From positions 33,253 to 97,252 of the forward strand of contig PFDI01000001.1 in the NCBI GenBank assembly GCA_002772695.1: a stretch of DNA of 64,000 nucleotides, in the 5' to 3' direction. The translations under genes were made by a program, and so were the position numbers. Every line of letters begins with the position of its first letter. The first letter of the stretch is position 1. Positions 1 through 33,976 of the stretch are shown here, in pieces. Origin of the DNA: Candidatus Pacebacteria bacterium CG10_big_fil_rev_8_21_14_0_10_44_54 (GTDB lineage Bacteria; Patescibacteriota; Microgenomatia; UBA1400; PJMF01). The notes beneath the pieces are model-generated. The model ran no database searches and was not told the DNA's origin. It saw nothing but the letters and a program-made list of their open reading frames with translations.

Positions 1-594
1 TGCAGCAATGGCTCAATGCCGACTAGTTGTACTGAACAAACTCCAACGCCACAACCAACTCCCGTCATCAATTGTGGGCAATTAGTTGGAACAAGTATTA
101 CAGAAATGTGCAAAATTGGCGATGAGCTACTTGGCCCTAGAAATTATTATGCTTGTCCTACAAACAGAGAATGTTGTAGACAAAGCACTCAATGCACTCC
201 TCTCAACGAAGATCCTGCTACATCTCCAAACCCAAACGAAAATAACAATCCTGCAGACGATGTTGTTGACCCCCCATTCCAAGGTCCAACTGTTGCCACA
301 TTCAATGCCCTCAACCCGCTTATTATAGGAAACAGCGAGTATGCTGTTCATCTGTCGACCCCAGGTGGGATTGTGTCTCGCTTCCTCATTTTTGCATTCC
401 CAATCGCCGGCCTCATTCTCTTTGGCATGCTCGTCTGGGCTGGATTTGAGATTTTGGCCGGAGCAAGCAACCAAAAGTCCCTTGATGCGGGCAAGCAGCG
501 CGCGACTGCAGCTATCGTCGGTTTCCTCTTGCTCTTTGCTTCATACTGGCTTATGCAGATTGTGGAAGTAATTTTTGGAATTTCGATTCTATAA
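1..594 (+). CDS. T4SS-pilin-like small membrane protein, paralog P0. The frame is open from base 1, so the gene is probably 5'-truncated by the window edge.
   Basis: C-terminal two-helix core (FLIFAFPIAGLILFGMLVWAGFEILAGASNQKSLDAGKQRATAAIVGFLLLFASYWLMQIV) is paralogous to the 5.3-9.4 kb array. N-terminal part is Cys/Pro-rich. Frame is open back to position 1. Confidence 0.5.
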   Translation, partial: CSNGSMPTSCTEQTPTPQPTPVINCGQLVGTSITEMCKIGDELLGPRNYYACPTNRECCRQSTQCTPLNEDPATSPNPNENNNPADDVVDPPFQGPTVATFNALNPLIIGNSEYAVHLSTPGGIVSRFLIFAFPIAGLILFGMLVWAGFEILAGASNQKSLDAGKQRATAAIVGFLLLFASYWLMQIVEVIFGISIL

Positions 595-663
595 ACTTAA
601 CGGAGTTCATGAAGCTTTTATGTATTTCAATAAAATATACAATAGTGTATAGTTTAATGAAAC

Positions 664-1206
664 ATGAATAAATATCAAACCCTATTGTCTCAGCCACATA
701 AACTATTTCATGCCTCTGATTTGGCATTGCTATGGGAAATTGATAATAAGGACACACTCAATATGACCCTAAAAAGGTATGTTGATCGTGGAATCTTAAG
801 AAGGATTCATAAAGGTTTCTATACCACCACAGATTTAGACCACTTAGACCTTATTGATTTAGGTTTTTCATACCTACATGTGTACGGCTACCTCTCTCTA
901 GAGAGCATACTAGTGAGGGAGGGTGTTATTTTCCAGGAAACACCCTATATTACTTTTGTGAGTTCCAAAAGCACCACCTTTTCTATTGGTGAAAGAGTGT
1001 ATAAGTCAAGACAGCTAAAAGATGTATGTCTACTAAACACCCTTGGCATAGAAAAAGTTGCTGGTCACTACGAGGCTAATCTAAACAGGGCAGTTGCCGA
1101 CATGCTCTACTACAATCCACAGTACCATTTTGATGCAACAAGCGCCATTAACTTTGACGCAGTCGCAACATTTCAAAAAGAAATAGGCTATGTTAAAAGC
1201 GAATAA
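664..1206 (+). CDS. AbiEi-like antitoxin / transcriptional regulator (type IV TA, abortive-infection family)
   Basis: About 180 aa, placed immediately upstream of and overlapping a DUF1814/AbiEii-like nucleotidyltransferase. The pairing and size are typical of AbiEi. No strong motif of its own. Confidence 0.45.
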   Translation: MNKYQTLLSQPHKLFHASDLALLWEIDNKDTLNMTLKRYVDRGILRRIHKGFYTTTDLDHLDLIDLGFSYLHVYGYLSLESILVREGVIFQETPYITFVSSKSTTFSIGERVYKSRQLKDVCLLNTLGIEKVAGHYEANLNRAVADMLYYNPQYHFDATSAINFDAVATFQKEIGYVKSE

Positions 1207-1927
1207 GCAACAAGCATTGCACAAATCAATCATTTTTAGAGTTTTGACTGCGATCTTGGATGATGCTTTCTTGTCTAGAGCTCTGTTTTTCAAAGGTGGA
1301 ACTTGTGCCAGTATGATCGGAATCCTAGATCGCTTTAGCGTCGACCTAGACTTTGATCTGAAAGAAAAAAGTCTGTCCACAAGAGCTGTCTTGTCTCTGG
1401 AGAGCATCTTCAAGAAACTTGATCTTACGATCAAAGATCAGAGTCACAACACGCTGCAGTATTTCTTGAAGTATGAAGCTGCAAAACAATCTCGAAATAC
1501 CTTAAAAATTGATGCAGTAAGCACACCGTTTTCGAACAATACATATCAAACAGTGCTGTTAAACGACATTAATCGCTATGCTATTTGTCAAACAAAAGGA
1601 ACTATATTTGCCAACAAGCTTGTTGCCTTAATAGACCGGCACAAACAAAACCAAACAATTGCCGCTCGAGATTTATATGACATTCATTATTATCTTGTGA
1701 ATGAGCTTGAATATAATCATCTGCTAATTACGGAACGAACAAATAAGGATCCAAAAACATACCTGATGGATGTAATCTCCTTCATTGAAAACAAAATCAC
1801 ACAAAAGATTATAGATCAGGATTTGAACTATCTATTGGAGTACAAGAAATTTACTGTTATTCGAAAAACGCTTAGACAAGAAACGATTGCTCTGCTTAGA
1901 GATAGGGTCGCCATGTTAGAGGGGTAA
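1190..1927 (+). CDS. AbiEii/AbiGii-family nucleotidyltransferase toxin (DUF1814)
   Basis: Motif FFKGGTCASMIGILDRFSVDLDFD matches the hallmark of the family (KGGTAL...RfSeDlDf). It overlaps the upstream partner by 17 nt. Confidence 0.6.
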   Translation: MLKANKQQALHKSIIFRVLTAILDDAFLSRALFFKGGTCASMIGILDRFSVDLDFDLKEKSLSTRAVLSLESIFKKLDLTIKDQSHNTLQYFLKYEAAKQSRNTLKIDAVSTPFSNNTYQTVLLNDINRYAICQTKGTIFANKLVALIDRHKQNQTIAARDLYDIHYYLVNELEYNHLLITERTNKDPKTYLMDVISFIENKITQKIIDQDLNYLLEYKKFTVIRKTLRQETIALLRDRVAMLEG

Positions 1928-2026
1928 ACAAAATAATTTTCCATTACTTTTGGAAGTTCTGTCCTGTAAATAACTGCTAACTGCGCCATAAATACTATAG
2001 GCACACCCAGCCTTATTCAGATGACC

Positions 2027-2740
2027 TCACCCCGCCCCAAACCTACGCTTCCGTTTGGCAAAATCAGCCAATACCTCGTCTAGTTTGTCTGGAGTAAATT
2101 CTGGAAAATCAAATTTTGGAAAACAAAATTCTGCATAGTTACTCTGCCAAGACATAAAGCCCGACAGCCGCTGCTCACCGCTGGTGCGAACAATAAAATC
2201 TGGTTCTGGCATGTCGGCAGTATCTAGGTGGCTAGCTATCACTTGCTCGGTGATTTCCTCTGGCTTGAGCTTTCCTACTAGTACTTTTTTACCAATTTTT
2301 TGTATTGCCCGCTGGAGCTCATCGTGCCCACCGTAGTTCATGGCAAACGTCAAGGTCAAGCCAGTATTTTTTTTGGTTAGCGCCACCCCATCAGCGATGC
2401 GCTTTTGAATATCTTTTGGCAAACCAGCTACATTACCAATGTGCTTGATGCGATAGTTTTTCTCGTGGAGCCTGGGTACTTTTTCGTCAAACACCTTGCG
2501 AAACAAGTTCATGAGGGCAGTCACCTCACGTCTTTCTCGATCCCAATTTTCGGTACTAAAGACCCAGAAGGTAATGTAGTCTATCCCAAGCGTAGCCGCG
2601 TGATCCGCCAAGGGCTCAAAGATCTCGTCAATTGCAAACTGGTGCCCACGCAGAACGTCCCAACCGTGCGACTTGGCCCACCGCCGGTTGCCGTCACAAA
2701 TGATTGCGAGGTGGGTGGGGAGGATTTTACTGTTACTCAT
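2027..2740 (-). CDS. uppS: Undecaprenyl diphosphate synthase (cis-prenyltransferase)
   Basis: HLAIICDGNRRWAK substrate-binding motif near the N-terminus and RTSGEQRLSGFMSWQSNYAEF near the C-terminus. Length 237 aa. Confidence 0.85.
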   Translation of the reverse strand: MSNSKILPTHLAIICDGNRRWAKSHGWDVLRGHQFAIDEIFEPLADHAATLGIDYITFWVFSTENWDRERREVTALMNLFRKVFDEKVPRLHEKNYRIKHIGNVAGLPKDIQKRIADGVALTKKNTGLTLTFAMNYGGHDELQRAIQKIGKKVLVGKLKPEEITEQVIASHLDTADMPEPDFIVRTSGEQRLSGFMSWQSNYAEFCFPKFDFPEFTPDKLDEVLADFAKRKRRFGAG

Positions 2741-3534
2741 GCTTCTATTCTTGTACCAAGCACTGCTTTGCCCGCCACGGCTTTTGAAAGACTGCCGTGT
2801 TCAATACCATCAATAATAAGACCAGGGATACCTCGCTGCGCCAGCCCCAGTGTCTCTCGCACTTTGTGCAACATCCCACCGGTGACATCAATTCCTCCTG
2901 ATCCCTGCAACACTTTTGCGTATGTGGCAACATTGTTCGAATTTATAAGTGGAATTGTCTCACCATTTTCATCATACACGCCATTAGTTTGGCCGCAATG
3001 AATTACTCGTTTAATCTGATATTTTTTCTGTTTTAAAGCAACCGCAATATAAGTCAAAACTGTTTCTGTCGAGAAGATAGTGCAACCTTTTTCTTCATCT
3101 AGTATTTGGTCACCATATACAACTGGTAGTAACCCAAGAGAGAGCAGCTGTTCGATGCTCTCAGTAAAAATCTTGTTGAGAACAAAGTTTTTCGCTGTCA
3201 TCATACTCAGAGGACTGACGGAAACCGCCAGCACTCCCGCTGCAATCAATTCTTGCAATACTATATCGTTTAGCTGCCGTGCGGCGTTTGCCACTTCTAC
3301 AAATCCTTGTCTCGCTTCTGGGTGAACCAGGCCCTTGTGGGTCTGGTATTTTTTTGCCGGGACGTGACCAAAGGAGCCAGCACCATGTCCAATGATCAGC
3401 TGAGTTCCCGACTGGGTAGCTTTTTTTACTTCCGCCGCAATTGTTCTCAGTGCAACTTCTTTAACCGTGAATGGTTTTGTCTTATCAGTGATGAGAGAGC
3501 CACCAAGCTTGATAAAGGTTAGTGATTTTTTCAT
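2737..3534 (-). CDS. ipk: Isopentenyl phosphate kinase (amino-acid kinase superfamily)
   Basis: N-terminal FIKLGGSLITDK and GHGAGSFGH motifs typical of isopentenyl phosphate kinase. Has a 4-nt overlap with uppS downstream and with the ORF upstream, so translational coupling is likely. Confidence 0.65.
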   Translation of the reverse strand: MKKSLTFIKLGGSLITDKTKPFTVKEVALRTIAAEVKKATQSGTQLIIGHGAGSFGHVPAKKYQTHKGLVHPEARQGFVEVANAARQLNDIVLQELIAAGVLAVSVSPLSMMTAKNFVLNKIFTESIEQLLSLGLLPVVYGDQILDEEKGCTIFSTETVLTYIAVALKQKKYQIKRVIHCGQTNGVYDENGETIPLINSNNVATYAKVLQGSGGIDVTGGMLHKVRETLGLAQRGIPGLIIDGIEHGSLSKAVAGKAVLGTRIEA

Positions 3535-4154
3535 CGCAACTCACCATTCTGGACCAGGGCATTTAGGATATAAACTAACGATGGTCTTAATTTGCTTTCA
3601 TCATTCTTGACAAAATTGCGTACTTCTCCATCTGGAACTACTATCTTTTTCTGTCCTAGTTCTTTGATCTGATCCGCAGTCAATCGAATAATACCTATTT
3701 GCACCCTATAAAGAGATGGCTCCCCGCCATTTTTTTGCAGTACCGGAACATTCATGGGTAAAAGCTGAATTTGCGAGCCCTCGATGCTGAGCGATCTTTC
3801 CTCCAACAACTTGCGAACCAAAGCTTTGCCATACGAACCATTATCAGCTTCGTCCATGCCTCCGGAGACAGCTTCAAATTTATTGCCAATTGCCAGCATT
3901 TCAGATTTATCACCCAACACCCTTTCTACTTTGCCAGCGTTCTCTTTGGCAGACGGCACTATAATTAACTCTCTTTGCGGACCAATAAACACTGCTAACA
4001 CACCTTCTCTCTCTGGAATTCTTAAACTTTCTACTGTATTCATATGTCGTATATATCTAAGCACTCCATTCGGCGCAGCATCTCCCATAGCCCGCAGTCC
4101 CAGATTCCACCCTCTCACCCTATGTAGGCTAGCAGAGCTTTCGTGGGACAGCAT
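3531..4154 (-). CDS. Hypothetical protein co-operonic with ipk and uppS; possibly a Nudix-fold protein. True start is likely an internal Met near 4043.
   Basis: No cysteine. Contains a degenerate Nudix-box-like segment SGGMDEADNGSYGKALVRKLLEERSL (compare Gx5Ex7REUxEExGU). Overlaps the ipk start by 4 nt. Confidence 0.3.
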   Translation of the reverse strand: MLSHESSASLHRVRGWNLGLRAMGDAAPNGVLRYIRHMNTVESLRIPEREGVLAVFIGPQRELIIVPSAKENAGKVERVLGDKSEMLAIGNKFEAVSGGMDEADNGSYGKALVRKLLEERSLSIEGSQIQLLPMNVPVLQKNGGEPSLYRVQIGIIRLTADQIKELGQKKIVVPDGEVRNFVKNDESKLRPSLVYILNALVQNGELR

Positions 4155-4198
4155 ATCTCATTAGTCGCAAAAGTGGGTGAAAATCACGCAAGTACTCG

Positions 4199-4567
4199 TT
4201 ACTCTCGAAAAGCAATCGCAAAGCGCAGCGTCAAGTACAGCAGTAATATTTGCCAATACACACAAAACAGCACTAGCCAATTGGCGATAAATGAAATCAA
4301 GTCACAACCAAAAAATCCAGAAGTGCTGCAAGAGAAAATATAACGAACTATAGGAACAAGTACAAAAAACCAAACAGCTTTTGCCAATACGAACACCGCT
4401 GTTGGCAACAATGCAAGCCACAAAAAAACATGCTCCCGCACCAGCGACTGCATGGTTTGATAAGGATGCAAAAGCAAGCCAACGGTAATTTTGCTACAGG
4501 CATATACAAACGAAATGGTGAAATGAAGTGCTTTCATGAACCCTCTCGCAACCAGAGCTTCAAACAC
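4199..4567 (-). CDS. Small polytopic membrane protein (candidate anti-sigma factor or membrane partner downstream of the ECF sigma gene)
   Basis: 122 aa, mostly hydrophobic helices. Sits between the ECF sigma gene and the ipk/uppS operon on the same strand. Confidence 0.3.
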   Translation of the reverse strand: MFEALVARGFMKALHFTISFVYACSKITVGLLLHPYQTMQSLVREHVFLWLALLPTAVFVLAKAVWFFVLVPIVRYIFSCSTSGFFGCDLISFIANWLVLFCVYWQILLLYLTLRFAIAFRE

Positions 4568-4736
4568 TCAAGTGCCAAGGCAGTTACTCCAGAGCCAAAT
4601 AACAAAACCTGCCAAGTGTATCTCCCAATAAATGACGAGACGGCATCAAGCTGCGACGGCAAAAGTTTTTTTGCCTCAAGCTTTGCTTGTAGCGACGCCT
4701 CTTTTTCGAGTATTTGGAGAAAATCGACGGTATTTT

Positions 4737-5333
4737 TCACATCATACTTTCAACCAAAACTTGCGAATACACGATACGAAATTCTTCACGAGCGCGAAAC
4801 AACTCCGACTCAATCGCCTTAACAGTCTTGCCGAACACACCGGCTATCTCTGTCACGCGCTTTTTGTCGATGTACTTAAGACGCAACAACTCTGCCGAGT
4901 GCGCCTGCATTCGAGCAAGGCAAGTAGTAACTAGCTGGGAAATCTCGGAAGTATCGTCGAGTGGCTTAGTCAAGAGTGCGTCGAGCAGTGGTACAGTATG
5001 CAGAGCTTTTTTTGCGTAGCGTTTGCGGTAGTAATCGGCTATCTCATGGCGAGCAATCGCGATCATCCATGTCCAAAGTGAAGCATCACCGCGAAACAGC
5101 GGCAGCTGCCGCAATGCATTGAGAAATGTTTCTTGAACTAGTTCCTCGCCGTCCTGCGGATCGCCCACTTTGTTTCTGACGTATCGCAACATCCTGTCGT
5201 GATACAGCGTAAACCACTGCCGCACGGCACTCGACTGACCACGCTTCAGCCTCACTATCAGCTGCTTTTCACTAGACATGAGTATATCGTATACTACTTG
5301 TATATGTTTGGCTTCCTTGTACCTGTTGCCCAT
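4737..5333 (-). CDS. ECF-type RNA polymerase sigma-70 family factor; true start is probably near 5279
   Basis: Region 2 (LVQETFLNALRQLPLFRGDASLWTWMIAIARHEIADYYR) and region 4 HTH (RVTEIAGVFGKTVKAIESELFRAREEF). Confidence 0.7.
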   Translation of the reverse strand: MGNRYKEAKHIQVVYDILMSSEKQLIVRLKRGQSSAVRQWFTLYHDRMLRYVRNKVGDPQDGEELVQETFLNALRQLPLFRGDASLWTWMIAIARHEIADYYRKRYAKKALHTVPLLDALLTKPLDDTSEISQLVTTCLARMQAHSAELLRLKYIDKKRVTEIAGVFGKTVKAIESELFRAREEFRIVYSQVLVESMM

Positions 5334-5666
5334 GCTATTACCGACTGCAAACCCGGCGAAGGTACTGAAGGTATTGATCTTGGCAATTGTCTCCGCCTTA
5401 GCAACGATAGCGCAATCAAAGACGTCTACTCCGAACCGGCTTTCTTGGTCAACCTCATCGTTCGCAATGCATTCGTCGCCGCCGGTGTTATTTTGTTTTT
5501 AATGATTTTCTTGGCAGGATTTAAGTTTGTTTCGCAGGGCAAAAAAGGCATGGAAGAAGCCAAAAACATCTCCAAGTCTGTTCTCATCGGCGCAATCTTG
5601 ATGTTTTGTGCCTACTGGATTGTACAAATTGTCCAGCTTTTGACTGGTGTTGATGTAGGGCTGTAA
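5304..5666 (+). CDS. T4SS-pilin-like protein, paralog P1 (TrbC/VirB2-like two-helix topology). The ORF-track start at 5199 overlaps the sigma gene, so ATG 5304 is more likely.
   Basis: Short signal-like N-terminus MFGFLVPVAHA. Core reads ...LFLMIFLAGFKFVSQGKKGMEEAKN...IGAILMFCAYWIVQIVQLL, with a charged loop between two hydrophobic helices. Confidence 0.5.
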   Translation: MFGFLVPVAHAITDCKPGEGTEGIDLGNCLRLSNDSAIKDVYSEPAFLVNLIVRNAFVAAGVILFLMIFLAGFKFVSQGKKGMEEAKNISKSVLIGAILMFCAYWIVQIVQLLTGVDVGL

Positions 5667-5667
5667 T

Positions 5668-6036
5668 ATGTCACAACTCGCAGCAAACAACCTTGGTATC
5701 GGCAAAATTGCTCAACCTCCTGGTGTAGACAAATACCAAGCTGCTGCTGGCAGCGAAATTGGTATCATGCTGTTTATCTCCATGCTCGTCAAGTTTGCCA
5801 TGATCGTGGCTGGTATTTGGGCAATGCTCAATATCTTTTTGGCCGCCTACATCTATATTAATGGCAAAGGTGATCCAGGCAATCACGAAAAAGTGGCCAA
5901 AGTTGTGACAAATACTACCATGGGCTTGGTGCTTCTTATTAGCCTCTATACAATCGTAGCCATTATTGGGCTTGTGTTCTTTGGGGATGCAAATTATATT
6001 TTGCGCCCAACACTAGCGCCGGTACCAGGTTTATGA
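5668..6036 (+). CDS. T4SS-pilin-like protein, paralog P2
   Basis: 122 aa with two hydrophobic helices (FISMLVKFAMIVAGIWAMLNIFLAAYIYINGKGDPGNHEKVAKVV...LVLLISLYTIVAIIGLVFFG). Tightly packed after P1. Confidence 0.5.
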   Translation: MSQLAANNLGIGKIAQPPGVDKYQAAAGSEIGIMLFISMLVKFAMIVAGIWAMLNIFLAAYIYINGKGDPGNHEKVAKVVTNTTMGLVLLISLYTIVAIIGLVFFGDANYILRPTLAPVPGL

Positions 6037-6599
6037 TCAAAATCATAACATTTCTTACTGCGTTCAGTTTATTTCACATATTTTCTGTTTCTGTAGTGCA
6101 GGCAGGTAGTTGCACAAGTGTTGGTGAGTGTGTGGATGGTCGTATCTGCGTCAAAGACACGCAATCAAACTTAATTTATAAAGGAAGTGAGTCATGTGGA
6201 GATGGCTCTGGACAAAGAATAATTGGCGAAATCACTCCCCCAAAATCAATTCGCAATTTAAATAATCTAGCAAGAATTAGAGATGGAGAATCTGTTGGCA
6301 TTGGCCTGATCATTTTCCTCTCGCGCGCACTGCGGCTGTTTACTATTGGGGTGGGATTATTTGTTATTGCCAACGTCGTCATGGCCGCCTACACCTACAT
6401 ATCAGAGTCAGATAGCAGTGACGTCATGACCAAAGTAAAAGAAAAGTTTACCTATACCGCTGTTGGGCTTGCTATAATTGTTGGCGCGTACACGCTTGCT
6501 GCGATCATTGGCTTACTCTTTTTTGGCGACGCAACATTTATCCTCTCACCAGAATTAACATCTGCGCTCGACCTCGCCGAAACTGCAGCCACACCATAA
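6033..6599 (+). CDS. T4SS-pilin-like protein, paralog P3, with a Cys-rich N-terminal extension
   Basis: Signal peptide plus a Cys-rich segment (AGSCTSVGECVDGRICV...SESCGDGSGQR), then the two-helix pilin core. Has a 4-nt overlap with P2. Confidence 0.5.
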   Translation: MIKIITFLTAFSLFHIFSVSVVQAGSCTSVGECVDGRICVKDTQSNLIYKGSESCGDGSGQRIIGEITPPKSIRNLNNLARIRDGESVGIGLIIFLSRALRLFTIGVGLFVIANVVMAAYTYISESDSSDVMTKVKEKFTYTAVGLAIIVGAYTLAAIIGLLFFGDATFILSPELTSALDLAETAATP

Positions 6600-6602
6600 A
6601 AC

Positions 6603-7007
6603 ATGTATAATAATGTCGTCATGAATACCCCACTCACCAGACTCGCGCAATTTGGCTCATTTGAACCACCAGTGGAGAATAAATTTACAACTGGTGCCAA
6701 CTCTGGCACTGGCGCCTTTACCAATCTAGAGCTGCTCATCTCTCATGCCTTTGGTGTCTTGACTGTTTTTGGTGGCTTATTTTTTATCGTCACCTTTCTG
6801 ATCGCTGGCATTAACTGGATTACCGCTGGCGGAGATACTGGCAAGATTGAGAAAGCACGCGGCAGCATGGTCCAGGGGACACTCGGTCTGGTAGTTATCG
6901 TCGCAGCCTATGCCGTGATTGGTGTTATCGGCTCTATCGTTGGCCTCAATTTGCTCAATCCTGCCGAGAGCCTGACTTCTTTGGTTACAAGAATACAAAC
7001 GCCATGA
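6603..7007 (+). CDS. T4SS-pilin-like protein, paralog P4
   Basis: Conserved loop motif INWITAGGDTGKIEKARGSMVQG lies between the two helices. Confidence 0.55.
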   Translation: MYNNVVMNTPLTRLAQFGSFEPPVENKFTTGANSGTGAFTNLELLISHAFGVLTVFGGLFFIVTFLIAGINWITAGGDTGKIEKARGSMVQGTLGLVVIVAAYAVIGVIGSIVGLNLLNPAESLTSLVTRIQTP

Positions 7008-7399
7008 AAAAAATACTAACTGCACTCGCATTTCTTGCGCTATCTACCTCAACCGTTTTGGCTGAGGTAACAAATCCAGCAGTGGGAACACTTGGTGCTG
7101 ATGCTGATGCAGCCGCAAGTGGCGCAACGTTTGCTCGCTACTTCATAATTCTCTGGCGCGCCCTCATTAGTGTTGGTGGTCTTGCGGTCGTTGTGCTCTT
7201 TTTGCAAGGTGGCATCGAGTGGGTTACCTCTGGTGGTGATTCTGGCAAGCTCGAAAAGGCACGCAATCGAATGGTACAGGGTGCGATTGGCTTGTTTGTG
7301 TTGGTAAGCTCCTTCACTCTGATAGCGTATATAAGCAAGTTGTTTTTTGGTCAAGAATTCCAAATTCTACAACTTACTTTTCCATCAGCGATTAAGTAA
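7004..7399 (+). CDS. T4SS-pilin-like protein, paralog P5
   Basis: Signal peptide. Loop motif IEWVTSGGDSGKLEKARNRMVQG. Confidence 0.55.
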   Translation: MKKILTALAFLALSTSTVLAEVTNPAVGTLGADADAAASGATFARYFIILWRALISVGGLAVVVLFLQGGIEWVTSGGDSGKLEKARNRMVQGAIGLFVLVSSFTLIAYISKLFFGQEFQILQLTFPSAIK

Positions 7400-7401
7400 C
7401 C

Positions 7402-7749
7402 ATGCCACCAACAGACGAAACCACCATCGACCTCTTCGAACAAGCAAAAACCCAAGAGCTTCCTGGCAGGAATGGTATTACTGATATCTCGAGTCCACAA
7501 GTTGGCTTGGGCAACCTCACTTCCAACCTTCTAAACATCGCCATGACTATTGCCGCCCTCCTGGTATTCATTTACTTGCTCTGGGGTGCGATTGGTTGGA
7601 TTACTGCTGGCGGCGACAAAGGCAAGATTGAAACAGCTCGCAATAAAATCACCACAGCCGTCATCGGTGTTGTAGTTTTAGCTTCGGTCGTGGCTATATT
7701 CAAAGTCTTACAGCTGGTTCTTGGTATTGAAGTCCTGACGTTTATCTAA
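7402..7749 (+). CDS. T4SS-pilin-like protein, paralog P6
   Basis: Loop motif IGWITAGGDKGKIETARNKITT flanked by hydrophobic helices. Confidence 0.55.
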   Translation: MPPTDETTIDLFEQAKTQELPGRNGITDISSPQVGLGNLTSNLLNIAMTIAALLVFIYLLWGAIGWITAGGDKGKIETARNKITTAVIGVVVLASVVAIFKVLQLVLGIEVLTFI

Positions 7750-7781
7750 TAAACTGATATTTGCATCTAGAAAATCAGAAG

Positions 7782-7790
7782 TGCTATAAT
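7782..7790 (+). promoter_or_regulatory. Extended -10 promoter element TGcTATAAT upstream of pilin P7, embedded in a small inverted repeat (TCAGAAG...CTTCTGA)
   Basis: The sequence agtgctataatc lies about 40 nt upstream of ATG 7831. An AAAGGA ribosome-binding site sits 7 nt before the start. Confidence 0.4.
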
Positions 7791-7830
7791 CTTCTGAACA
7801 AGACGTAGTACAGAGTACTAAAAGGAAAAC

Positions 7831-8304
7831 ATGACCAACTCATTTTCAAAAATTGCAAGTAAAGCAAGCGCTCTAGGCACTGCTGGGTATATTGCCTTAT
7901 CAAACACTCTTGGAAATGTTCTAGCCCAGAACACTGGCATAGGTACTAGCGCCTCTCGTCCAGCACCAGGGGTAGATAATGCTGGTGGCAACGTTCGTCT
8001 TGCCAAGGGTTATGCGGATAATGTTGGTAGTCTTATCACTTCTGTTCTGACGTTTGTTATGTTGATCGCTGCTCTTTTGATCCTTATGTATCTCATTTGG
8101 GGTGGTATCCAGTGGATTACTTCTGGTGGAGATAAAGGAAAGACTGAAGAAGCACGAAATAAGATTACTTCAGCCGTCATTGGTCTGATCATCCTAGCGG
8201 CAGCTTGGGCAGTCTTTTTAATTGTGCTCAAGTTCCTAGGATTTTCAAATTACAATGATCTGTTTAATAATATTCAAAGCATCAATACACCTTCTGCAGG
8301 CTAA
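7831..8304 (+). CDS. T4SS-pilin-like protein, paralog P7
   Basis: Loop motif IQWITSGGDKGKTEEARNKITS. C-terminal tail ...FLGFSNYNDLF is shared with P8. Confidence 0.55.
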   Translation: MTNSFSKIASKASALGTAGYIALSNTLGNVLAQNTGIGTSASRPAPGVDNAGGNVRLAKGYADNVGSLITSVLTFVMLIAALLILMYLIWGGIQWITSGGDKGKTEEARNKITSAVIGLIILAAAWAVFLIVLKFLGFSNYNDLFNNIQSINTPSAG

Positions 8305-8333
8305 TAATGCAGCTTTAGCTTTTTAACATTATG

Positions 8334-8358
8334 ACCCCCGCCGCTGGCGGGGGTTTTT
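8334..8358 (+). terminator. Rho-independent terminator after pilin P7
   Basis: GC stem cccccgcc / gcggggg with loop gctg, followed by TTTTT. Confidence 0.7.
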
Positions 8359-8375
8359 GTACATCATATTCCCAG

Positions 8376-8387
8376 ATGTAGTATAAT
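8376..8387 (+). promoter_or_regulatory. -10 element (TATAAT) upstream of pilin P8
   Basis: gtagtataat with TATAAT at 8382-8387, just upstream of ATG 8395. Confidence 0.35.
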
Positions 8388-8394
8388 ACCCAAC

Positions 8395-8871
8395 ATGATC
8401 AAATGGTATCAAAGTGTCTTTCTATGTCTGGTGGTTTTTGCCTACTTTTTGGCGCCAGCAGCAATCTCTGCTAGCGGTAGCTCGCTCGGTGTTGTTCGTG
8501 ACGGCGACTCTGTCTACCTCTCTACCACCGCTGCAACGCAATCAGCTACTGCAAGTGGTACAGCATTTGGAGACGTCACACTTTTTAAGGGCTACGCTCT
8601 TACACTTGGCGGCCTCATCACCTCGTTGCTCACTTTAATTATTCTTGTATCGGCTCTTCTTGTTTTTCTCCAACTCATCACCGCCGCCTTCCAATGGCTC
8701 ACCTCGGGCGGAGATAAGGGTAAAACAGGCGAAGCCAGAAGTAAAATTGTCGCTGCGATCATTGGCCTTGTTATTGTCGCTGCTTCTTGGGCTGTCTTTA
8801 TGGTGGTACTCAAATTCCTTGGTTTTGAGTCGTACGACGACTTGTTTGCCAATATGCGATCGATTAGTTGA
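8395..8871 (+). CDS. T4SS-pilin-like protein, paralog P8
   Basis: Loop motif FQWLTSGGDKGKTGEARSKIVA. Closest paralog of P7. Confidence 0.55.
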   Translation: MIKWYQSVFLCLVVFAYFLAPAAISASGSSLGVVRDGDSVYLSTTAATQSATASGTAFGDVTLFKGYALTLGGLITSLLTLIILVSALLVFLQLITAAFQWLTSGGDKGKTGEARSKIVAAIIGLVIVAASWAVFMVVLKFLGFESYDDLFANMRSIS

Positions 8872-8945
8872 TGTAAACCTTACTTTTTTTACTATAAAGC
8901 AAGAATACAAACACTCTAAAGCTAGTTTTATTGATCATTTCTGCC

Positions 8946-8954
8946 TGCTATACT
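8946..8954 (+). promoter_or_regulatory. Extended -10 promoter element TGcTATACT upstream of pilin P9
   Basis: ctgctatact ends 8 nt upstream of ATG 8963. Confidence 0.35.
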
Positions 8955-8962
8955 ACTAAGTG

Positions 8963-9409
8963 ATGCGCACACAGGCACTTTTTTTCAAAATGTACAAAAA
9001 TTTTACCACAGCTTTCGCCCTGTTCTTGATCAGTGTGCAGCCAGTCTTTGCCCAAACAGCTGCTTGGGGCGGCAAATGTGTGGATGGTGAACAAGATGAC
9101 GTCGCCACCATCCAAGGTCTTGAGTGTTTGTTTGCCAATGTATTTTTAGTCATTATTCCTCTCATTGGCCTGGCTGCGTTTGTCATGTTTCTGGTCGGAG
9201 CATTTCGCTGGCTCACCTCGGGCGGAGACACCAAACACACTGGTCAAGCCAAACAAACAATGACGTTTGCGGTGATCGGCATCGTAGTAGCACTCAGCGC
9301 TTTTATAATTTTAAACCTCATTGCCAATTTTACCGGTGTCGAGAAAATCAAAGAATTTAGGATTCCTCGCTCAAATGAGCCGCCCGAACAAACGCAATTT
9401 GTCGATTGA
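8963..9409 (+). CDS. T4SS-pilin-like protein, paralog P9, with a Cys-containing N-terminal segment
   Basis: Signal peptide, then AAWGGKCVDGEQDDVATIQGLEC, then loop motif FRWLTSGGDTKHTGQAKQTMT between helices. Confidence 0.5.
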   Translation: MRTQALFFKMYKNFTTAFALFLISVQPVFAQTAAWGGKCVDGEQDDVATIQGLECLFANVFLVIIPLIGLAAFVMFLVGAFRWLTSGGDTKHTGQAKQTMTFAVIGIVVALSAFIILNLIANFTGVEKIKEFRIPRSNEPPEQTQFVD

Positions 9410-9481: not shown

Positions 9482-12400
9482 GTGAGAATTTTTGCGAAAT
9501 TTATTGTGCCCCTTTGTCTGACGCTTGTTTTGGGCGCAGCACCTGCTTCTGTACAAGCTGTAGCTTGTGGGATAAATATTGACCCTACAAATCCTGCTGG
9601 ATATCCCAGCCCAAATGCTCTACCTGCTGGCAGTTGGGTACGACTTGAATACAAAGATTGTAGCACTCAAGAACCCGCAACTAACTCTGTTGAAATGTAC
9701 AAAGACGTGCTACAGACATATCGAAATGCCGGAATAAAAACCCTCGTCATTCTTGATTATCTCACCTATCCGGGAGCGGACAAAAATACACAAGCACTAG
9801 CAACACGAACAACATATATTAACGAAGAACTCGGTAGTCTAGTCGATGCCTACGAAATTTGGAATAAACCCGATATAGAACAGGGTGGCAATCTTGCGCC
9901 CAAAAATTTTGCAAAAATACTCGACGCAATCGTGCCAACCCTGAGTGGAAAAACGGTTGTTCTCGGTGGACTTGCATCGGGACAAACCAGCTACCTCGAT
10001 GAAACGCTGCGCGCTGTATCTGAGAACACACTGGGTGGAATTTCCGCCATAGGAATTCATCCTTATGCAAAGTCTGTCGATGGTTTTCCTGGACCAATGA
10101 CGGGAGATATGGGGTTTTTGCTGTCTCAATACAAGGCTTTATCTCAGGGAAAACCACTCTGGATAACCGAGATCGGTATCAACACCAAAAATGCTGAGCA
10201 AATAACCGGTTATCTAGATCGAGTGTTTGCTGCTGGTTATGGAGACCCTACTTTCTGGTTTGCGTGGAGTGATGGTATGGTACAGAATTTTGGCATTGTT
10301 GATGCAGATCAAAATCCAAAAGCTAACTTTTCAAACTACTTTCGGGCATGTGGCGCAGTCGCTCCCTCAGGAAAACAACAAACACTGCCAGCTATTACCC
10401 CAGTTGGAGGGCAAGGCTGTGGGGTAGCAATTTCAAAAAATAACTACAAAGATACCAAGTCAGATGATCCAAACCTATTTCACTTATCACCTTTTGATGG
10501 CTTGTATCCCGATCCAGGCACGCGCGACTATGATCAGTTGCGTCTCGATCTTGTTCAACAGGGCTACCAAGCATACTGTGCCATCCCAGATCAAGAAATT
10601 GTTGGTACCCTGAGTCCGGCAGAGATCGTCAAGTACTTTGTATCAAATGGGGGAGAAAAGGAACTTGAAATAAATCCCATTCTTACACTTGATTACTCGA
10701 AGGCACAAACACCTCTATTTCGCGACAGCGAAAGAAAATACCAAATAAAAAGTGACATAGAAGAATACTGGGTATATCAAGAATCAGAGGGAGATAGTTT
10801 CTCTCAGATCGAATTGCAGTCTGCTCCTATCGAATCAATTCTTTCAGAAGATCAGCGCTGTAGCCAAGGGGTAAAAAACTTGTACTCTCAAGATGATATG
10901 TGCTCAAAACTAACTGAGCCTAAAAGGTGTTCTCTCTATGCATCGCTTATCCCCAATACATCCCACACTGTTGAGAGTATTCTTGAAGAATATAAGTCTC
11001 ATGGGGGATCAAAAGAGAATGGACTTGAAGTATGCAAAAAACTGAGACTCGCAAATGAAAACACTCAGCGAAAACTTTTTTCTGACCTTACTCAAGTTCC
11101 TCTGAGCATTGATACGGGGTTTCGATTTGCTTTTTTGGTGCTCGCATTTCAAGAGCTGAAACCTGCCCCACTAGAGTTATTTCGCTTTTTTGGGCACGGT
11201 GCTCCACCCAGAGACGAAGTGCTGGTGATAGCGTTCAAAATTCCTGATATTATCACCAATAAACCTGAAGGAACTTCCTTCTCGGACTCAAACTCCTTTG
11301 CATATCCGGCCTTCTCTGATGGTGCGCTGCTCGCTAGAGATTCGCTGCTGAGCACCAAACAGCAAGCTGTGGCTCAAGAACAAAAAAAAGAACTCAAACA
11401 AGAGTTAACGACAACTATCGGGAGCGTTGCTGGTCAAAACAATGGTAGTCTCATTTACTGTCTTGATGGAACGCCGCCAAATGGCACTGGCAGTATCGCT
11501 TGCAATGATCAGCTGGTCAAAGCGCTTACAGATATCATCAACGCCCAACACGTCATCGACGATTCACAGCTTGTGTGTGTGGGTAAAGACGAAATTGATG
11601 CTTCATTTGTAATTGATGAACCAGCTGCTGCTCGTATACAGTCTCCTCCCGCTCTGTTTTCTGACCGTCTGGGGGCGCAAATCATTTCGCAGCTATTTTT
11701 AAGCCAAGCGAACACAGCTACCGACGCTCTTGCCAAAGAATTTTTTAGTTCTTTTTTGATAAATATTTCGACTACTGAGGGAGGAAACAAGCTGTCTGGC
11801 AACACAAAACTAAGAAGCTACATAGTCTACCCCGTTGGCTATGAACTTAAAGAAGTAGAAAATGTGCTTGCCAACAGTTTTTTGACCAAACAGCAAATCA
11901 CAGCATTGCAAAAAGATACAAACAACAACGAGCGTTTTGAAATGTACGGCGGCACTACAAAACTTACAGAAACTGAAGCTGGCTTTAGTGTTTTTTATCC
12001 CATAAACTGCATTCCCTCGATTGACTCTTGTTATAGAACTATCACGGGTGCTATCGACATGGGCGTTCTCAAGCCAATCCAGTTTCTTGGCGCCAAACTT
12101 GGCTACTATCTGCGCGCGGTACAGCGCACGCTTGCCAAAGAAGCTAGTTCTGTCCAAGCCTATCTCGCAAACTGCAAAACAACAGAGCAATTCCTGCTTG
12201 ATCGCTGTGCTAGCGTCCAACAAAAACCACCAAAGCAAGCACTGACATACTGCAGCATGAATGAGCTACCGATCACAAACGAGACTACCGAATCTTTCAA
12301 AATCTGTAAGGCAACCGAAAATTGGAGAGAATGCGAGCTTGTTGACGCAGGTAGCCCTACCTATTTTGTTGATGGTGGTTCAGACAACACACTCGAGTAT

Positions 12401-13789
12401 GTGGTACGCATCCTCGATGGCGCAACACTTGTTACCACCGGCAGTGTTGTGACAATGAATCCCGGCCAGGGCTATGATAAGGTTGAAGGCTCATACAAAC
12501 GCTGTGGAGTCGGCGATAGCGAAAGTGCCCCAGGCGAAGTGTGGTATTTGCCCCCAGGTACTCCCGCCGACGAGAGTATTGAGTCTTTTCGAACTTGGGC
12601 GAAGTATGGATCAAAGCTCATGCCGATTATCGGAAGCAACGCTTGGACAAATCTAACCGTCAGCTTGCGGGTGAAACCAGGCTACTACCACATTCCAAGC
12701 TGGACGTTTGGTTGCCTTAGTCGAGGTAAATGGTGGATTAACTCAAAGGGAGAGAAATCTGATGATGGTTTTACTCTTGGCAAGGGTATTATTCCTGTTG
12801 GAATCACTGCTTCCGGTAAACAATCCTACTGTGCGAAAGTCACGCTAAACTCAAATATGCCAGGAGGACCAAGTGACTCCGATGAAATCTTGCTGGACTC
12901 AAGCTACTCCTGCAGTATAGCTGATCCTGGTTATAACCTCACACTCAATAATAATTGTGGTGGACTCAATAGTAGTGGAGATGGACAGCTCTGGAGAGAC
13001 TTGTTTTCGGCGGATGACGAAAGGGGGACAAATAAACTCCCCGGGCTAGCCCTATATGAGAAAATTTTTGGAATAGCGTTCACTGTACCAAGCGATAATA
13101 TCGGCTGTGATCAGTTATTCCCCAACACTATCCGTGAAGTTGCTTGCGATGAGGTGAGTAATTCTGACGTGGGTAGTATTGCCAATTTTGGCAGTGATGT
13201 GTCGTTTGATATCGAGTACTGGAATCACAGTATGGTAACGTTCAAGCCGCCGTCTCAGGAAATTTGGAGTGCCATTCAAACTGCCTCTGCCAAGCATCGC
13301 TGCGATCCGTATCTAGTCTTGGCAGTGGCTCACTCTGAAAGTTCTCAGTATCGCAATGATACGGTCAGTTCAGCGGGAGCAAAAGGTGTCTGGCAATTTA
13401 CTGATGACACCTGGGACACGTGGAAAACTCCACACGCTGCAAGTGCAAATGAATGTCAGGCACACCAGCCACCAACCTTTTCTACCGAGGGTTTGGATTT
13501 TAGCTCTCCAACAAACATCCAGGCGGCCGCCGACTCAGCTTGTCGCAAAATTATGTGGATTGGTATGCAGCGGTATCCAGGTAATCTCAATAGCTTTGCA
13601 CGCGTCTTTGCGGTCAATGGTGATAACCCATATAGTCAGATTTGGAATGCGCACATCGAGCAAGGAAAGTACGTCTGGAGATTGTGGAAAAAACTGAGAG
13701 AGATCATTCCAGATGCCAAAACTCCTAGATCGCATCCTGCCAACTATCCTCAGGCAGGATGGGAAAGCTGTCCACAACGAAGAAATTAG
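9482..13789 (+). CDS. Giant secreted protein (1435 aa). N-terminal part is glycoside-hydrolase-like (TIM-barrel type). C-terminal part is a VirB1-like lytic transglycosylase (SLT) domain.
   Basis: Signal peptide MRIFAKFIVPLCLTLVLGAAPASVQA. GH-type nucleophile context GKPLWITEIGINTK near aa 225. C-terminal SLT signature CDPYLVLAVAHSESSQYRNDTVSSAGAKGVWQFTDDTW. Confidence 0.55.
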   Translation: MRIFAKFIVPLCLTLVLGAAPASVQAVACGINIDPTNPAGYPSPNALPAGSWVRLEYKDCSTQEPATNSVEMYKDVLQTYRNAGIKTLVILDYLTYPGADKNTQALATRTTYINEELGSLVDAYEIWNKPDIEQGGNLAPKNFAKILDAIVPTLSGKTVVLGGLASGQTSYLDETLRAVSENTLGGISAIGIHPYAKSVDGFPGPMTGDMGFLLSQYKALSQGKPLWITEIGINTKNAEQITGYLDRVFAAGYGDPTFWFAWSDGMVQNFGIVDADQNPKANFSNYFRACGAVAPSGKQQTLPAITPVGGQGCGVAISKNNYKDTKSDDPNLFHLSPFDGLYPDPGTRDYDQLRLDLVQQGYQAYCAIPDQEIVGTLSPAEIVKYFVSNGGEKELEINPILTLDYSKAQTPLFRDSERKYQIKSDIEEYWVYQESEGDSFSQIELQSAPIESILSEDQRCSQGVKNLYSQDDMCSKLTEPKRCSLYASLIPNTSHTVESILEEYKSHGGSKENGLEVCKKLRLANENTQRKLFSDLTQVPLSIDTGFRFAFLVLAFQELKPAPLELFRFFGHGAPPRDEVLVIAFKIPDIITNKPEGTSFSDSNSFAYPAFSDGALLARDSLLSTKQQAVAQEQKKELKQELTTTIGSVAGQNNGSLIYCLDGTPPNGTGSIACNDQLVKALTDIINAQHVIDDSQLVCVGKDEIDASFVIDEPAAARIQSPPALFSDRLGAQIISQLFLSQANTATDALAKEFFSSFLINISTTEGGNKLSGNTKLRSYIVYPVGYELKEVENVLANSFLTKQQITALQKDTNNNERFEMYGGTTKLTETEAGFSVFYPINCIPSIDSCYRTITGAIDMGVLKPIQFLGAKLGYYLRAVQRTLAKEASSVQAYLANCKTTEQFLLDRCASVQQKPPKQALTYCSMNELPITNETTESFKICKATENWRECELVDAGSPTYFVDGGSDNTLEYVVRILDGATLVTTGSVVTMNPGQGYDKVEGSYKRCGVGDSESAPGEVWYLPPGTPADESIESFRTWAKYGSKLMPIIGSNAWTNLTVSLRVKPGYYHIPSWTFGCLSRGKWWINSKGEKSDDGFTLGKGIIPVGITASGKQSYCAKVTLNSNMPGGPSDSDEILLDSSYSCSIADPGYNLTLNNNCGGLNSSGDGQLWRDLFSADDERGTNKLPGLALYEKIFGIAFTVPSDNIGCDQLFPNTIREVACDEVSNSDVGSIANFGSDVSFDIEYWNHSMVTFKPPSQEIWSAIQTASAKHRCDPYLVLAVAHSESSQYRNDTVSSAGAKGVWQFTDDTWDTWKTPHAASANECQAHQPPTFSTEGLDFSSPTNIQAAADSACRKIMWIGMQRYPGNLNSFARVFAVNGDNPYSQIWNAHIEQGKYVWRLWKKLREIIPDAKTPRSHPANYPQAGWESCPQRRN

Positions 13790-14698: not shown

Positions 14699-15211
14699 TC
14701 AGAGTGTATCAATGGGGAGGTGTCTACTAGCTGCTCGAACATACTTGAGAGAGAGCATGAGAACAGTTTTACTAATTAGCGATGGTAGAAAACCAAAATG
14801 TAGATAAAAAGCAGCAGCTTCCTTGTGTAGAGCATGAACTAAGATCGCTCGGACACCAATCTTTTCTGCAACCTGCAACGTTCGCAGAATAGCGTCCCGA
14901 AGTAATGCCCTACCAAGCCCTTTGCTTTGCCATACCTCTGCAACAGCCAGTCTGCCCAAAATTACCACTGGAATAGGATTGGGCATATTTCGCCTCACTC
15001 TACCTGGAGTCGCTTGAGCCATAACGGAGCCGCTAGCAAGTGAGTAGTAGGCAACTACCTTGTTCTCTGCCACAGCAACATAGGTGCGCGATGCTCCAGA
15101 AAGCTGGTTCTGCAGTGCTCTGCGCCGCAACCACTGATCCAACTCTAGATCGCCAGAGGAAAAATCGGATAAGTTGTATGATTTGATGAGTAGGGTTGGT
15201 CTCAATCCCAT
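14699..15211 (-). CDS. tacT: GNAT-family acetyltransferase toxin (TacT/AtaT-like). The ORF-track start at 15292 overlaps the antitoxin, so Met near 15211 is more likely.
   Basis: GNAT core VVILGRLAVAEVWQSKGLGRALLRDAILRTLQVAEKIGVRAILVHALHKEAAAFYLHFGF. Sits immediately downstream of, and slightly overlapping, the DUF1778 antitoxin. Confidence 0.6.
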   Translation of the reverse strand: MGLRPTLLIKSYNLSDFSSGDLELDQWLRRRALQNQLSGASRTYVAVAENKVVAYYSLASGSVMAQATPGRVRRNMPNPIPVVILGRLAVAEVWQSKGLGRALLRDAILRTLQVAEKIGVRAILVHALHKEAAAFYLHFGFLPSLISKTVLMLSLKYVRAASRHLPIDTL

Positions 15212-15486
15212 GGAGCTGGAGTAGCTAGCAATGTCTGAAGTGCTTTTGGATGACGGATAGGAGCATCGAGAATTGCGGCAAACTCCTCCCACTTTGTATC
15301 ATCTAACAAAAATAACTGCTGGTCGAGCAATGCGCTCTCGGCTTCTCGTGCAGCTACATCTAAAATAAATTCTGAGCGTGTTTTGCCCCGTACTCGAGCG
15401 GCCTGGTCAATCAAGTCTCGCTGGACTGGAGCTATACGAATATTGATGTGGATGCTTTTTGCAGTTGGTGTTTTCTGTGTTTGCAT
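15202..15486 (-). CDS. tacA: DUF1778 / TacA-family RHH antitoxin
   Basis: 94 aa. IRIAPVQRDLIDQAARVRGKTRSEFILDVAAREAE ribbon-helix-helix segment, typical of partners of GNAT toxins. Confidence 0.6.
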   Translation of the reverse strand: MQTQKTPTAKSIHINIRIAPVQRDLIDQAARVRGKTRSEFILDVAAREAESALLDQQLFLLDDTKWEEFAAILDAPIRHPKALQTLLATPAPWD

Positions 15487-15598
15487 GTTTATATCTTACA
15501 GAATAGTTGTGAGATGTCAACACATTGTGTGTACAAATAAAGATGAATGTACTTTTTATCTTGATATTTTGTGCATCCTGATGTACAATTAGTCAAAT

Positions 15599-29021: not shown

Positions 29022-29022
29022 T

Positions 29023-29592: not shown

Positions 29593-29621
29593 TCAAATGG
29601 TTCTCTATTGATCTTGGCTCT

Positions 29622-30833: not shown

Positions 30834-30884
30834 CTTGCCGCCTGCCTTGAAACACGCTACGATACTACACAGAGACAAACTTGC

Positions 30885-31916: not shown

Positions 31917-31938
31917 GATTTGGCCAATAAACAATACT

Positions 31939-31967
31939 CAACCCACAACTTTCATTGTTGTGGGTTG
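31939..31967 (+). other. Perfect 11-bp stem / 7-nt loop hairpin in the 70-bp gap between the two VirB4 ORFs
   Basis: caacccacaac-tttcatt-gttgtgggttg. No following T-tract, so it is not a canonical intrinsic terminator. Confidence 0.6.
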
Positions 31968-31986
31968 TTGCGTACAATAGCTTGTA

Positions 31987-33909: not shown

Positions 33910-33976
33910 CACTCGTTTTCTCACTTGCTAATTGTGGAAAAGACTGTGTATAACTAAGTGCTCTGCCCCAGTTATT

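Follow-up and report, generated by a model that had tools for sequence, protein, structure and literature searches.

Gene organization of the locus

The stretch of DNA analyzed here, called the window below, comprises 64,000 nucleotides of contig PFDI01000001.1 (positions 33,253 to 97,252) from Candidatus Pacebacteria bacterium CG10_big_fil_rev_8_21_14_0_10_44_54. On its minus strand, from 5333 to 2027, it carries six co-directional genes that encode, in this order, an extracytoplasmic function (ECF) sigma factor, proteins of 68, 112 and 207 residues, isopentenyl phosphate kinase (IPK) and undecaprenyl-diphosphate synthase (UppS). These genes most likely make up the final module for the synthesis of isoprenoids and of the lipid carrier in a bacterium of the Microgenomates, which belong to the candidate phyla radiation (CPR). 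Our main subject is the 207-residue protein encoded directly before IPK, which we named NUDL; the 68- and 112-residue proteins were named SM68 and MEMB. The genes of the string are as follows.

4737..5333, minus strand: ECF-type sigma factor; the longest open reading frame (ORF) has 198 aa, the public start at 5279 gives 180 aa
4534..4740, minus strand: SM68, 68-aa single-pass protein, a candidate anti-sigma factor from its position only
4199..4537, minus strand: MEMB, 112-aa polytopic membrane protein; ATG at 4537, ORF open from 4567
3531..4154, minus strand: NUDL, IPK-associated Nudix-like protein; 207-aa ORF with its start at 4154, 4088 or 4043
2737..3534, minus strand: IPK, 265 aa; NF040647 (207.7 bits), PF00696
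2027..2740, minus strand: UppS, a cis-prenyltransferase, 237 aa; PF01255, TIGR00055

The IPK sequence scored 207.7 bits with the NCBIfam model NF040647 (IPPK_Arch, cutoff 120) and also matched PF00696, which represents the amino-acid-kinase fold. The solved IPKs 8u0k and 3k4o matched it over the full length (residues 4-263) with E~1e-33, and the GxGSFGH and DVTGG motifs aligned with those of the solved enzymes, GHGAGSFGH standing opposite HGGGSFGH. For UppS the matches were PF01255 (E=2e-70, 237 bits) and TIGR00055 (230.3 bits, cutoff 109.6), and the translation carries the catalytic motifs DGNRRWA and RTSGEQRLSGF. The sigma factor contains regions 2 and 4 (PF04542, E=2.5e-15; PF08281, E=1.2e-07) and reached 68 bits with TIGR02937 against a cutoff of 43. 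No Pfam or NCBIfam family matched NUDL, MEMB or SM68. A first-pass annotation of this DNA had described the locus as a co-directional string of these genes; all ORFs lie at the coordinates it gave, and the families of the sigma factor, IPK and UppS were confirmed by Pfam and NCBIfam. It had also placed one small polytopic membrane protein upstream of the Nudix-like gene. The polytopic 112-residue gene is indeed present, but not singly, as the separate gene for the single-pass SM68 is found there too.

Four of the five junctions in the string are 4-nt overlaps. The sigma factor and SM68 genes overlap by GTGA, and the SM68 and MEMB genes by ATGA if the latter starts at ATG 4537, which agrees with the N-termini of its homologues. 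ATGA also forms the 4-nt overlaps between NUDL and IPK and between IPK and UppS, both of which had been claimed earlier. The sole non-overlapping junction is the one before NUDL, with a gap of 44 nt for the start at 4154, 110 nt for 4088 and 155 nt for 4043. Position 4088 is the public call and gives a 185-residue protein, whereas the homologues and the confident structural model described below begin at 4043. Public records of the contig (three records) call the genes for the sigma factor, SM68, the 185-residue version of NUDL, IPK and UppS, and leave the MEMB ORF uncalled. UppS is the last gene of the string, because the next gene, encoding an AbiEii toxin (1190-1927), is convergent. Since distant relatives show the same gene order, the string is more than a chance arrangement, and its genes may be co-transcribed. 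An Rfam scan of window positions 1-9000 gave no matches.

Sequence relationships and predicted fold of NUDL

Direct family scans with NUDL returned a single sub-threshold match, to DUF6996, and a word-indexed homologue search found only the query itself. When 1.84 billion representative sequences were searched exhaustively with phmmer, six homologues emerged, with E-values from 4e-6 to 8e-4 and 27-35% identity; all six alignments start at about residue 46-53 of the 207-residue ORF, and the confident part of the predicted fold likewise sets in near residue 46. Subsequent profile searches added two more NUDL sequences and no others. The members form a small family in which sequences diverge strongly (25-31% identity). 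Two homologues exceed the Pfam NUDIX gathering score of 21.1: P0004 reaches 31.6 bits and P0007 26.3. Window NUDL gave no match to this model (PF00293) even at E<=10, so by sequence its membership of the Nudix superfamily rests on transitive evidence.

A profile of seven NUDL sequences searched against the sequences in the PDB matched almost exclusively Nudix proteins, the best being the MutT 7syc (E=1.7e-5), and this match covered the Nudix box. Structure prediction with AlphaFold2 (AF2) on 170 residues of NUDL, starting from M38 and using a nine-row alignment, gave a pLDDT of 92.3 and a pTM of 0.85; the single sequence gave a pLDDT of 37.7. When the model was compared with the PDB by Foldseek, 142 matches with E<=1e-3 were obtained and the top 50 were Nudix folds without exception. 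These included NUDT14, the MutY C-terminal domain, NUDT22, Ap4A hydrolase, MutT, NudI, RppH and ADP-ribose pyrophosphatase. Template modeling (TM) scores were 0.4-0.6 at 10-18% identity, with NUDT14 as the best match (E=2e-7, TM about 0.55-0.6). Transitive homology, the profile comparison with PDB sequences and the confident model thus show a predicted Nudix fold for NUDL, and the earlier suggestion that the protein is Nudix-like holds at the level of the fold. From its sequence NUDL is predicted to be soluble, with no membrane segment.

The possibility that NUDL is a type 1 isopentenyl diphosphate isomerase (IDI-1) was ruled out. It did not match TIGR02150 or NF002995, and no IDI was present among the top 50 fold matches. 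A locally built IDI hidden Markov model gave no score for window NUDL versus 200-360 bits for the true IDI-1 neighbors in relatives. Window NUDL has no cysteine at all, and the catalytic Cys, the ExE motif and the metal-binding His of IDI are lacking. The links between NUDL, IDI-1 and the second Nudix family described below are weak (phmmer 13-19 bits, hhalign E=3.6e-4) and were taken as superfamily-level relationships; iterated NUDL profiles in the end draw in IDI-1.

Window NUDL deviates from the canonical Nudix box, G-x5-E-x7-R-E-U-x-E-E-x-G-U; its corresponding segment reads GGMDEADNGSYGKALV-R-K-L-L-E-E-R-S-L with one additional residue between the glycines and the helix. In an alignment of 14 NUDL members the Arg and the last Glu of the box (R77 and E82) are invariant, each being found in 14/14 sequences. 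Outside the box, an upstream E-x3-K-x-E motif, a Gln about 21 residues past the box and a C-terminal R-P are conserved.

The IPK neighborhood in relatives

To place the locus we compared 80 IPK loci from GTDB species genomes and 80 from metagenomes, which were annotated with locally built profiles and are numbered with the prefix L. The closest IPK among GTDB-representative genomes is 83% identical to that of the window. Adjacency was judged on the six NUDL homologues of the phmmer search, which were found by sequence alone and are therefore unbiased by the collection of loci. All six sit directly upstream of IPK, often with a 4-nt overlap, and mostly with UppS after it. At L175 the neighbor is truncated but still scores 124 bits on the IPK profile. 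In total, NUDL occupies the slot upstream of IPK in 11 non-redundant GTDB or lookup loci and in three metagenome loci.

In other Microgenomates the same slot is filled by a second Nudix family of 170-250 aa, here designated U (L019, L020, L025, L030, L037, L103, L104, L108, L122, L126, L132 and L154). Seven of its eight tested members pass the Pfam NUDIX threshold. The family has the E-x3-K motif seen in NUDL and an R-x3-E-E-x-G box, and the Glu of 'RE' is Gly or Ala in 6/11 members. In 27 loci the 1.5 kb upstream of IPK contain a non-IDI Nudix gene in the same orientation, and in 25 of them the two genes are adjacent. Adjacency of Nudix and IPK genes in isoprenoid clusters is thus strict as well as widespread. 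The gene just upstream of IPK in CPR loci is NUDL, U, IDI-1 or a member of the diphosphomevalonate decarboxylase (MVD) family (TIGR01240). On the other side, 75 loci have UppS at most 2.5 kb downstream of IPK, and in 39 the two genes are immediate neighbors on one strand.

Locus L009 repeats the whole arrangement of the window at about 30-40% protein identity. It consists of an array of pilin-like genes divergent from the sigma gene, followed by genes for the small protein, the membrane protein, IDI-1, NUDL, IPK and UppS, and its IDI-1 gene reaches 138.6 bits with NF002995 (cutoff 127). L028 and L101 contain a single string of HMGR, HMGS, archaeal-type thiolase, DUF35, IDI-1, NUDL, IPK and UppS. 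In L033 and L089 mevalonate kinase (MVK) precedes the MVD-like decarboxylase (TIGR01240) upstream of IPK. Because relatives extend the string with IDI-1, and some of them with HMGR, HMGS and thiolase, IPK belongs to a mevalonate/isoprenoid cluster. These strings, like those with MVK and the MVD-like gene, point to the end of the mevalonate pathway more than to the stand-alone salvage setting proposed in the first-pass annotation. IPK had been called unusual in bacteria, but in this lineage it is no oddity: many Microgenomates have it, and a 2018 paper (PMC6107057) already reported that it is syntenic with IDI-1 and a cis-prenyltransferase.

The window locus itself has no IDI-1, and no trace of an IDI-1 remnant was found in the 44-155 nt before NUDL. 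A six-frame search of the whole 64-kb window detected no IDI, MVD, HMGR, HMGS, thiolase or trans-prenyltransferase, and no genes of the mevalonate (MVA) or methylerythritol phosphate (MEP) pathways lie within it. On the IPK tree the distribution of NUDL is patchy, and the sister loci L018 and L022 differ solely in the slot before IPK, which holds the decarboxylase in L018 and NUDL in L022. Mutual exclusion of NUDL and the MVD-like decarboxylase was considered as a general rule and rejected: it held for NUDL in the strict sense (11 loci each) but was broken by the U family, since L108 and L122 carry both.

Where UppS is missing, a conserved protein of ~300 aa follows IPK (L017:6878-7810, L019, L020 and L025:6792-7673). 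It has no Pfam match. The L017 copy resembles mevalonate kinase only faintly, scoring 41 bits where the cutoff is 403; the protein may be a divergent GHMP kinase of the pathway. The IPKs of Micrarchaeota and Aenigmatarchaeota (L039, L043-L046, L049 and other DPANN) are 41-47% identical to window IPK and so equal many CPR IPKs in similarity. The micrarchaeal IPK gene comes after a block encoding ~430-, ~388- and ~133-aa proteins that by size alone are probably thiolase, HMG-CoA synthase and DUF35. Loci of the CPR type (L014, L018, L020, L022, L026-L028 and others) were also found in several GTDB and TPA assemblies titled 'uncultured Pseudomonadales', 'Gammaproteobacteria' or 'Vitreimonas sp.'. 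Such titles look like taxonomic mislabels; one of the assemblies is a 1.41-Mb contig (L060).

The sigma factor triad and the pilin-like array

In the relatives SM68 and then MEMB always follow the sigma gene in that order. SM68 recurs in 10 non-redundant loci, where it immediately follows sigma without exception, and has a conserved N-terminal helix (FLxkLexEAxxQAxLE) and one C-terminal membrane helix. MEMB is conserved in 17 non-redundant loci with the motifs GLLLHPYxTMQxLVRE and WQxxLxYLxxRF. Both are real genes. Of the ECF/anti-sigma pair that had been proposed for this locus, the ECF factor stands on its regions 2 and 4 and its TIGR02937 match. The anti-sigma partner is a candidate by position: SM68 overlaps the sigma gene and has one membrane helix, and it matched no anti-sigma domain or other family in Pfam or NCBIfam.

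Opposite the triad there is in every case a divergently oriented array of short genes whose products resemble pilins of type IV secretion systems (T4SS). In the window this feature is the following.

5304-9409, also 16-594, plus strand: T4SS-pilin-like tandem array of about ten small genes with PF18895, a C-terminal membrane helix and GGDxGK

The array diverges from the sigma gene, and the public starts on either side are only about 24 nt apart. Next after the array comes a gene for a 1435-residue protein (9482-13789). Its arrangement with the sigma gene recurs in many Microgenomates loci. Among 87 bacterial-type loci, 45 have an ECF sigma gene at most 3.5 kb upstream of IPK, co-directional in 29 and divergent in 16. 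In L026 and L028 the triad lies on the opposite side of the array from the IPK string, and in L018, L022 and many Woesebacteria loci the sigma gene is divergent from IPK. The neighborhood is therefore conserved, whereas a single transcription unit running from sigma to UppS is not. The triad is tied to the pilin-like array at least as tightly as to the IPK genes, as L026 and L028 illustrate. An earlier proposal had linked the sigma factor to undecaprenyl supply; its proximity to IPK in about half of the loci agrees with this, but the link is not exclusive given the equal or closer tie to the array. The triad is probably a conserved envelope-associated regulatory set, which would control the IPK module, the pilin-like array or both.

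Possible functions of NUDL

Our preferred reading, to which we give somewhat less than an even chance, is that NUDL works on C5 prenyl (di)phosphates and adjusts, jointly with IPK, the supply of isopentenyl diphosphate (IPP) to UppS. IPK would convert isopentenyl phosphate (IP) to IPP, and UppS would use IPP to form undecaprenyl diphosphate for cell-wall synthesis. NUDL would be a phosphohydrolase, or at least a binder, of C5 prenyl diphosphates, converting IPP and dimethylallyl diphosphate (DMAPP) to IP and dimethylallyl phosphate (DMAP). In concert with IPK, to which it is translationally coupled, it would determine the IP:IPP ratio that feeds UppS, and the pair would be a bacterial, operon-encoded counterpart of the IPK/Nudix cycle of plants. 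Conversion of IPP and DMAPP to the monophosphates has been described for E. coli NudB and other Nudix enzymes (PMC6058358).

A more far-reaching version, which we regard as rather unlikely, holds that NUDL and U are dedicated isoprenoid enzymes of the CPR instead of regulatory accessories. They might, for example, turn IPP/DMAPP, or a precursor taken from the host, into IP or DMAP. IPK would then be a controlled or even the sole gate to undecaprenyl-phosphate synthesis, and the ECF sigma triad would couple this gate to envelope and pilus biogenesis. If true, this would explain why an archaeal IPK is kept by CPR bacteria alongside, or even without, the classical mevalonate pathway.

A number of observations weigh against the tuning of IPP supply by NUDL and IPK. 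In the box of the window protein the Glu of 'RE' is replaced by Lys and the Gly by Ser, and there is no Glu at the first position; a catalytically active window copy would have to tolerate these changes. Erosion of the box extends across the 14 NUDL members, in which the RE Glu is kept in 12/14, the first Glu of EE in 10/14 and the Gly in 9/14, and the non-box residues E34, K38, Q103, R153 and P154 (numbered from M38) are at least as conserved as the box. NUDL evolves much faster than IPK: compared with L014, identity is 26% for NUDL and 69% for IPK. Its neighbors in fold space are nucleotide-sugar and nucleotide hydrolases, and at TM scores of merely 0.4-0.6 they give no clue to the substrate. 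NUDL is moreover dispensable in close relatives, as L026, L023 and L032 have the string of the L028 type without it. A co-translated hydrolase and kinase acting on the same metabolite pair would also constitute an ATP-wasting cycle. On the regulatory side, an ECF-type dyad sought upstream of 23 orthologous sigma genes was found at best in 5 loci versus 2-4 in shuffles, so that no usable motif emerged, and a scan for promoters and terminators gave no signal above shuffled controls and did not delimit transcription units.

Four other explanations stay in play because the box of the window copy is degenerate, NUDL diverges fast and the preferred reading would imply a futile cycle. NUDL may be a non-catalytic Nudix-fold protein, serving as a ligand sensor or as a regulatory or stabilizing subunit that binds IPK or IP/IPP; we consider this unlikely. 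The MutY C-terminal domain uses a Nudix fold for binding, and such domains rank among the best Foldseek matches of NUDL. The degenerate box of the window copy, the deviations at box positions in several other NUDL members, the Gly or Ala in place of the RE Glu in the U family and the rapid divergence relative to IPK are all in line with a loss of catalysis, and the 4-nt coupling to IPK agrees with stoichiometric co-production. A purely binding role is harder to reconcile with the invariance of R77 and E82, with the retention of RExxEE in most members and with the almost canonical box of many relatives. Action at the product end appears quite improbable. Here NUDL would convert undecaprenyl diphosphate, or farnesyl or geranyl diphosphate (FPP, GPP), to the monophosphate and so supply undecaprenyl phosphate, replacing or assisting a membrane UppP/PAP2 phosphatase. 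Nudix enzymes such as NudB and plant NUDX1 do hydrolyze GPP and FPP to monophosphates (PMC6058358, PMC8857926), and the frequent position of UppS next to or shortly after IPK would suit this role. Yet the invariant neighbor of NUDL is IPK rather than UppS; NUDL or U precedes IPK also where UppS is absent or on the opposite strand (L015, L016, L019, L020 and L022), and the predicted solubility of NUDL, with no membrane segment, fits poorly.

We attach little probability to salvage, in which the upper mevalonate pathway would have been lost, NUDL would release IP or DMAP from a scavenged or alternative precursor and IPK would be the sole entry to IPP. This idea draws on the missing MVA, MEP, IDI and trans-prenyltransferase genes of the 64-kb window, on CPR species that retain IPK and IDI-1 without most MVA genes (PMC6107057), and on the exchange of the MVD-like decarboxylase for NUDL between L018 and L022. 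It conflicts with L028 and L101, where NUDL shares a string with HMGR, HMGS and thiolase, and with the co-occurrence of U-family Nudix genes and MVD in L108 and L122. We also know of no candidate salvage precursor, which counts against it. The first-pass annotation had named the 207-residue protein as a candidate for a missing salvage activity; this is a conjecture, and the Nudix box of the window copy is degenerate. Similarly improbable is that NUDL is a housekeeping Nudix protein, active in nucleotide sanitation or RNA decapping and merely lodged in the operon, or a decaying duplicate of the adjoining IDI-1 gene. The top PDB sequence matches are MutT-type enzymes, NUDL adjoins IDI-1, itself a Nudix protein, in most relatives, and the iterated profiles eventually reach IDI-1. 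But a hitch-hiking gene would not be expected to show adjacency to IPK in 6/6 homologues across about 25-30% identity, with a second Nudix family occupying the same slot. A decaying copy is also at variance with the intact ORF and the confident predicted fold, and descent from IDI-1 with the lack of an IDI-1 model match, of cysteine and of the IDI Cys and Glu motifs and with the absence of IDI from the top 50 folds. If NUDL were inactive or unrelated to prenyl phosphates, the locus would amount to the already-described IPK-UppS synteny.

Other features of the window

Immediately past UppS and convergent with it, positions 664-1927 (plus strand) encode a pair consisting of an AbiEi-like antitoxin and the AbiEii nucleotidyltransferase toxin. 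A type-IV-secretion-like block at 24675-36815 (plus strand) comprises a 1448-residue protein, PrgI-like and TraC-like proteins and a VirB4/TraG-type ATPase. Since dnaA and dnaN come directly after this block, the window likely spans the replication-origin region. Two further toxin-antitoxin pairs are located on the minus strand: a GNAT acetyltransferase with a TacA-like antitoxin at 14699-15600, and a PIN domain protein with a MazE-like antitoxin at about 45500-46300.

Comparison with known systems

Most Microgenomates carry MVA genes (Hoshino & Gaucher 2018, PMC6107057). According to the same study, the archaeal-type IPK of CPR bacteria is typically syntenic with IDI-I, even in species without other MVA genes, and CPR MVA genes cluster with a cis-prenyltransferase. 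The study describes the function of IPK as uncharacterized in these bacteria, in which classical MVA genes are present as well. The window locus shares with these clusters the lineage, the archaeal-type IPK and the adjacency of IPK and cis-prenyltransferase (UppS). It differs in having no IDI-1, whereas its relatives add IDI-1 together with HMGR, HMGS, archaeal thiolase and DUF35, or MVK and the MVD-like decarboxylase. In PMC6107057 there is no mention of a Nudix partner besides IDI-1, of the sigma/SM68/MEMB triad or of the pilin-array neighborhood. Searches of the full-text literature combining IPK with Nudix, IPK with CPR, and mevalonate with Microgenomates found no bacterial Nudix-IPK operon. 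IPK-UppS(-IDI) synteny in CPR has been known since 2018, while the Nudix families associated with IPK, both families of small membrane proteins and the conserved neighborhood in which they occur appear to be undescribed. This work defines two small protein families that lack annotation, together with a conserved triad of sigma factor and membrane proteins. The role of IPK in CPR bacteria bears on arguments about the evolution of isoprenoid synthesis, and ultra-small, host-dependent bacteria still require undecaprenyl phosphate for their cell wall.

In the alternative mevalonate pathway of Chloroflexi and archaea, which combines a mevalonate-phosphate decarboxylase with IPK, IPK likewise catalyzes the last step. 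The likeness extends to relatives that lack NUDL and have an MVD-family decarboxylase in its slot, preceded by MVK in L033 and L089. The window differs in containing neither a decarboxylase nor a mevalonate kinase, and it is not plausible that a Nudix fold performs the decarboxylation. IDI-1 shares the Nudix superfamily with NUDL, and its gene adjoins NUDL in most relatives. The fold is also common to NudI and ADP-ribose pyrophosphatase (NudF), both among the Foldseek matches of NUDL, but such enzymes are housekeeping proteins with other primary substrates, no genomic link to isoprenoid synthesis and 10-18% identity to NUDL.

The closest parallel in proposed logic is found in plants, where, according to PMC8248349 (citing Henry 2015, 2018), IPK and Nudix hydrolases balance IP/DMAP against IPP/DMAPP. 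The plant system (AtNUDX1, AtNUDX3) resembles the window locus in pairing an archaeal-type IPK with a Nudix-fold protein, possibly next to a classical MVA route, and in balancing a C5 monophosphate against its diphosphate. The plant genes are unlinked, their Nudix boxes are canonical and activity has been measured. The bacterial locus is instead apparently operonic and translationally coupled, and its Nudix protein belongs to a new, very divergent family with a degenerate box. The conserved, coupled Nudix partner of IPK provides a testable hypothesis, namely that CPR bacteria may practice a plant-like cycling between IP and IPP or a gating of IPP supply.

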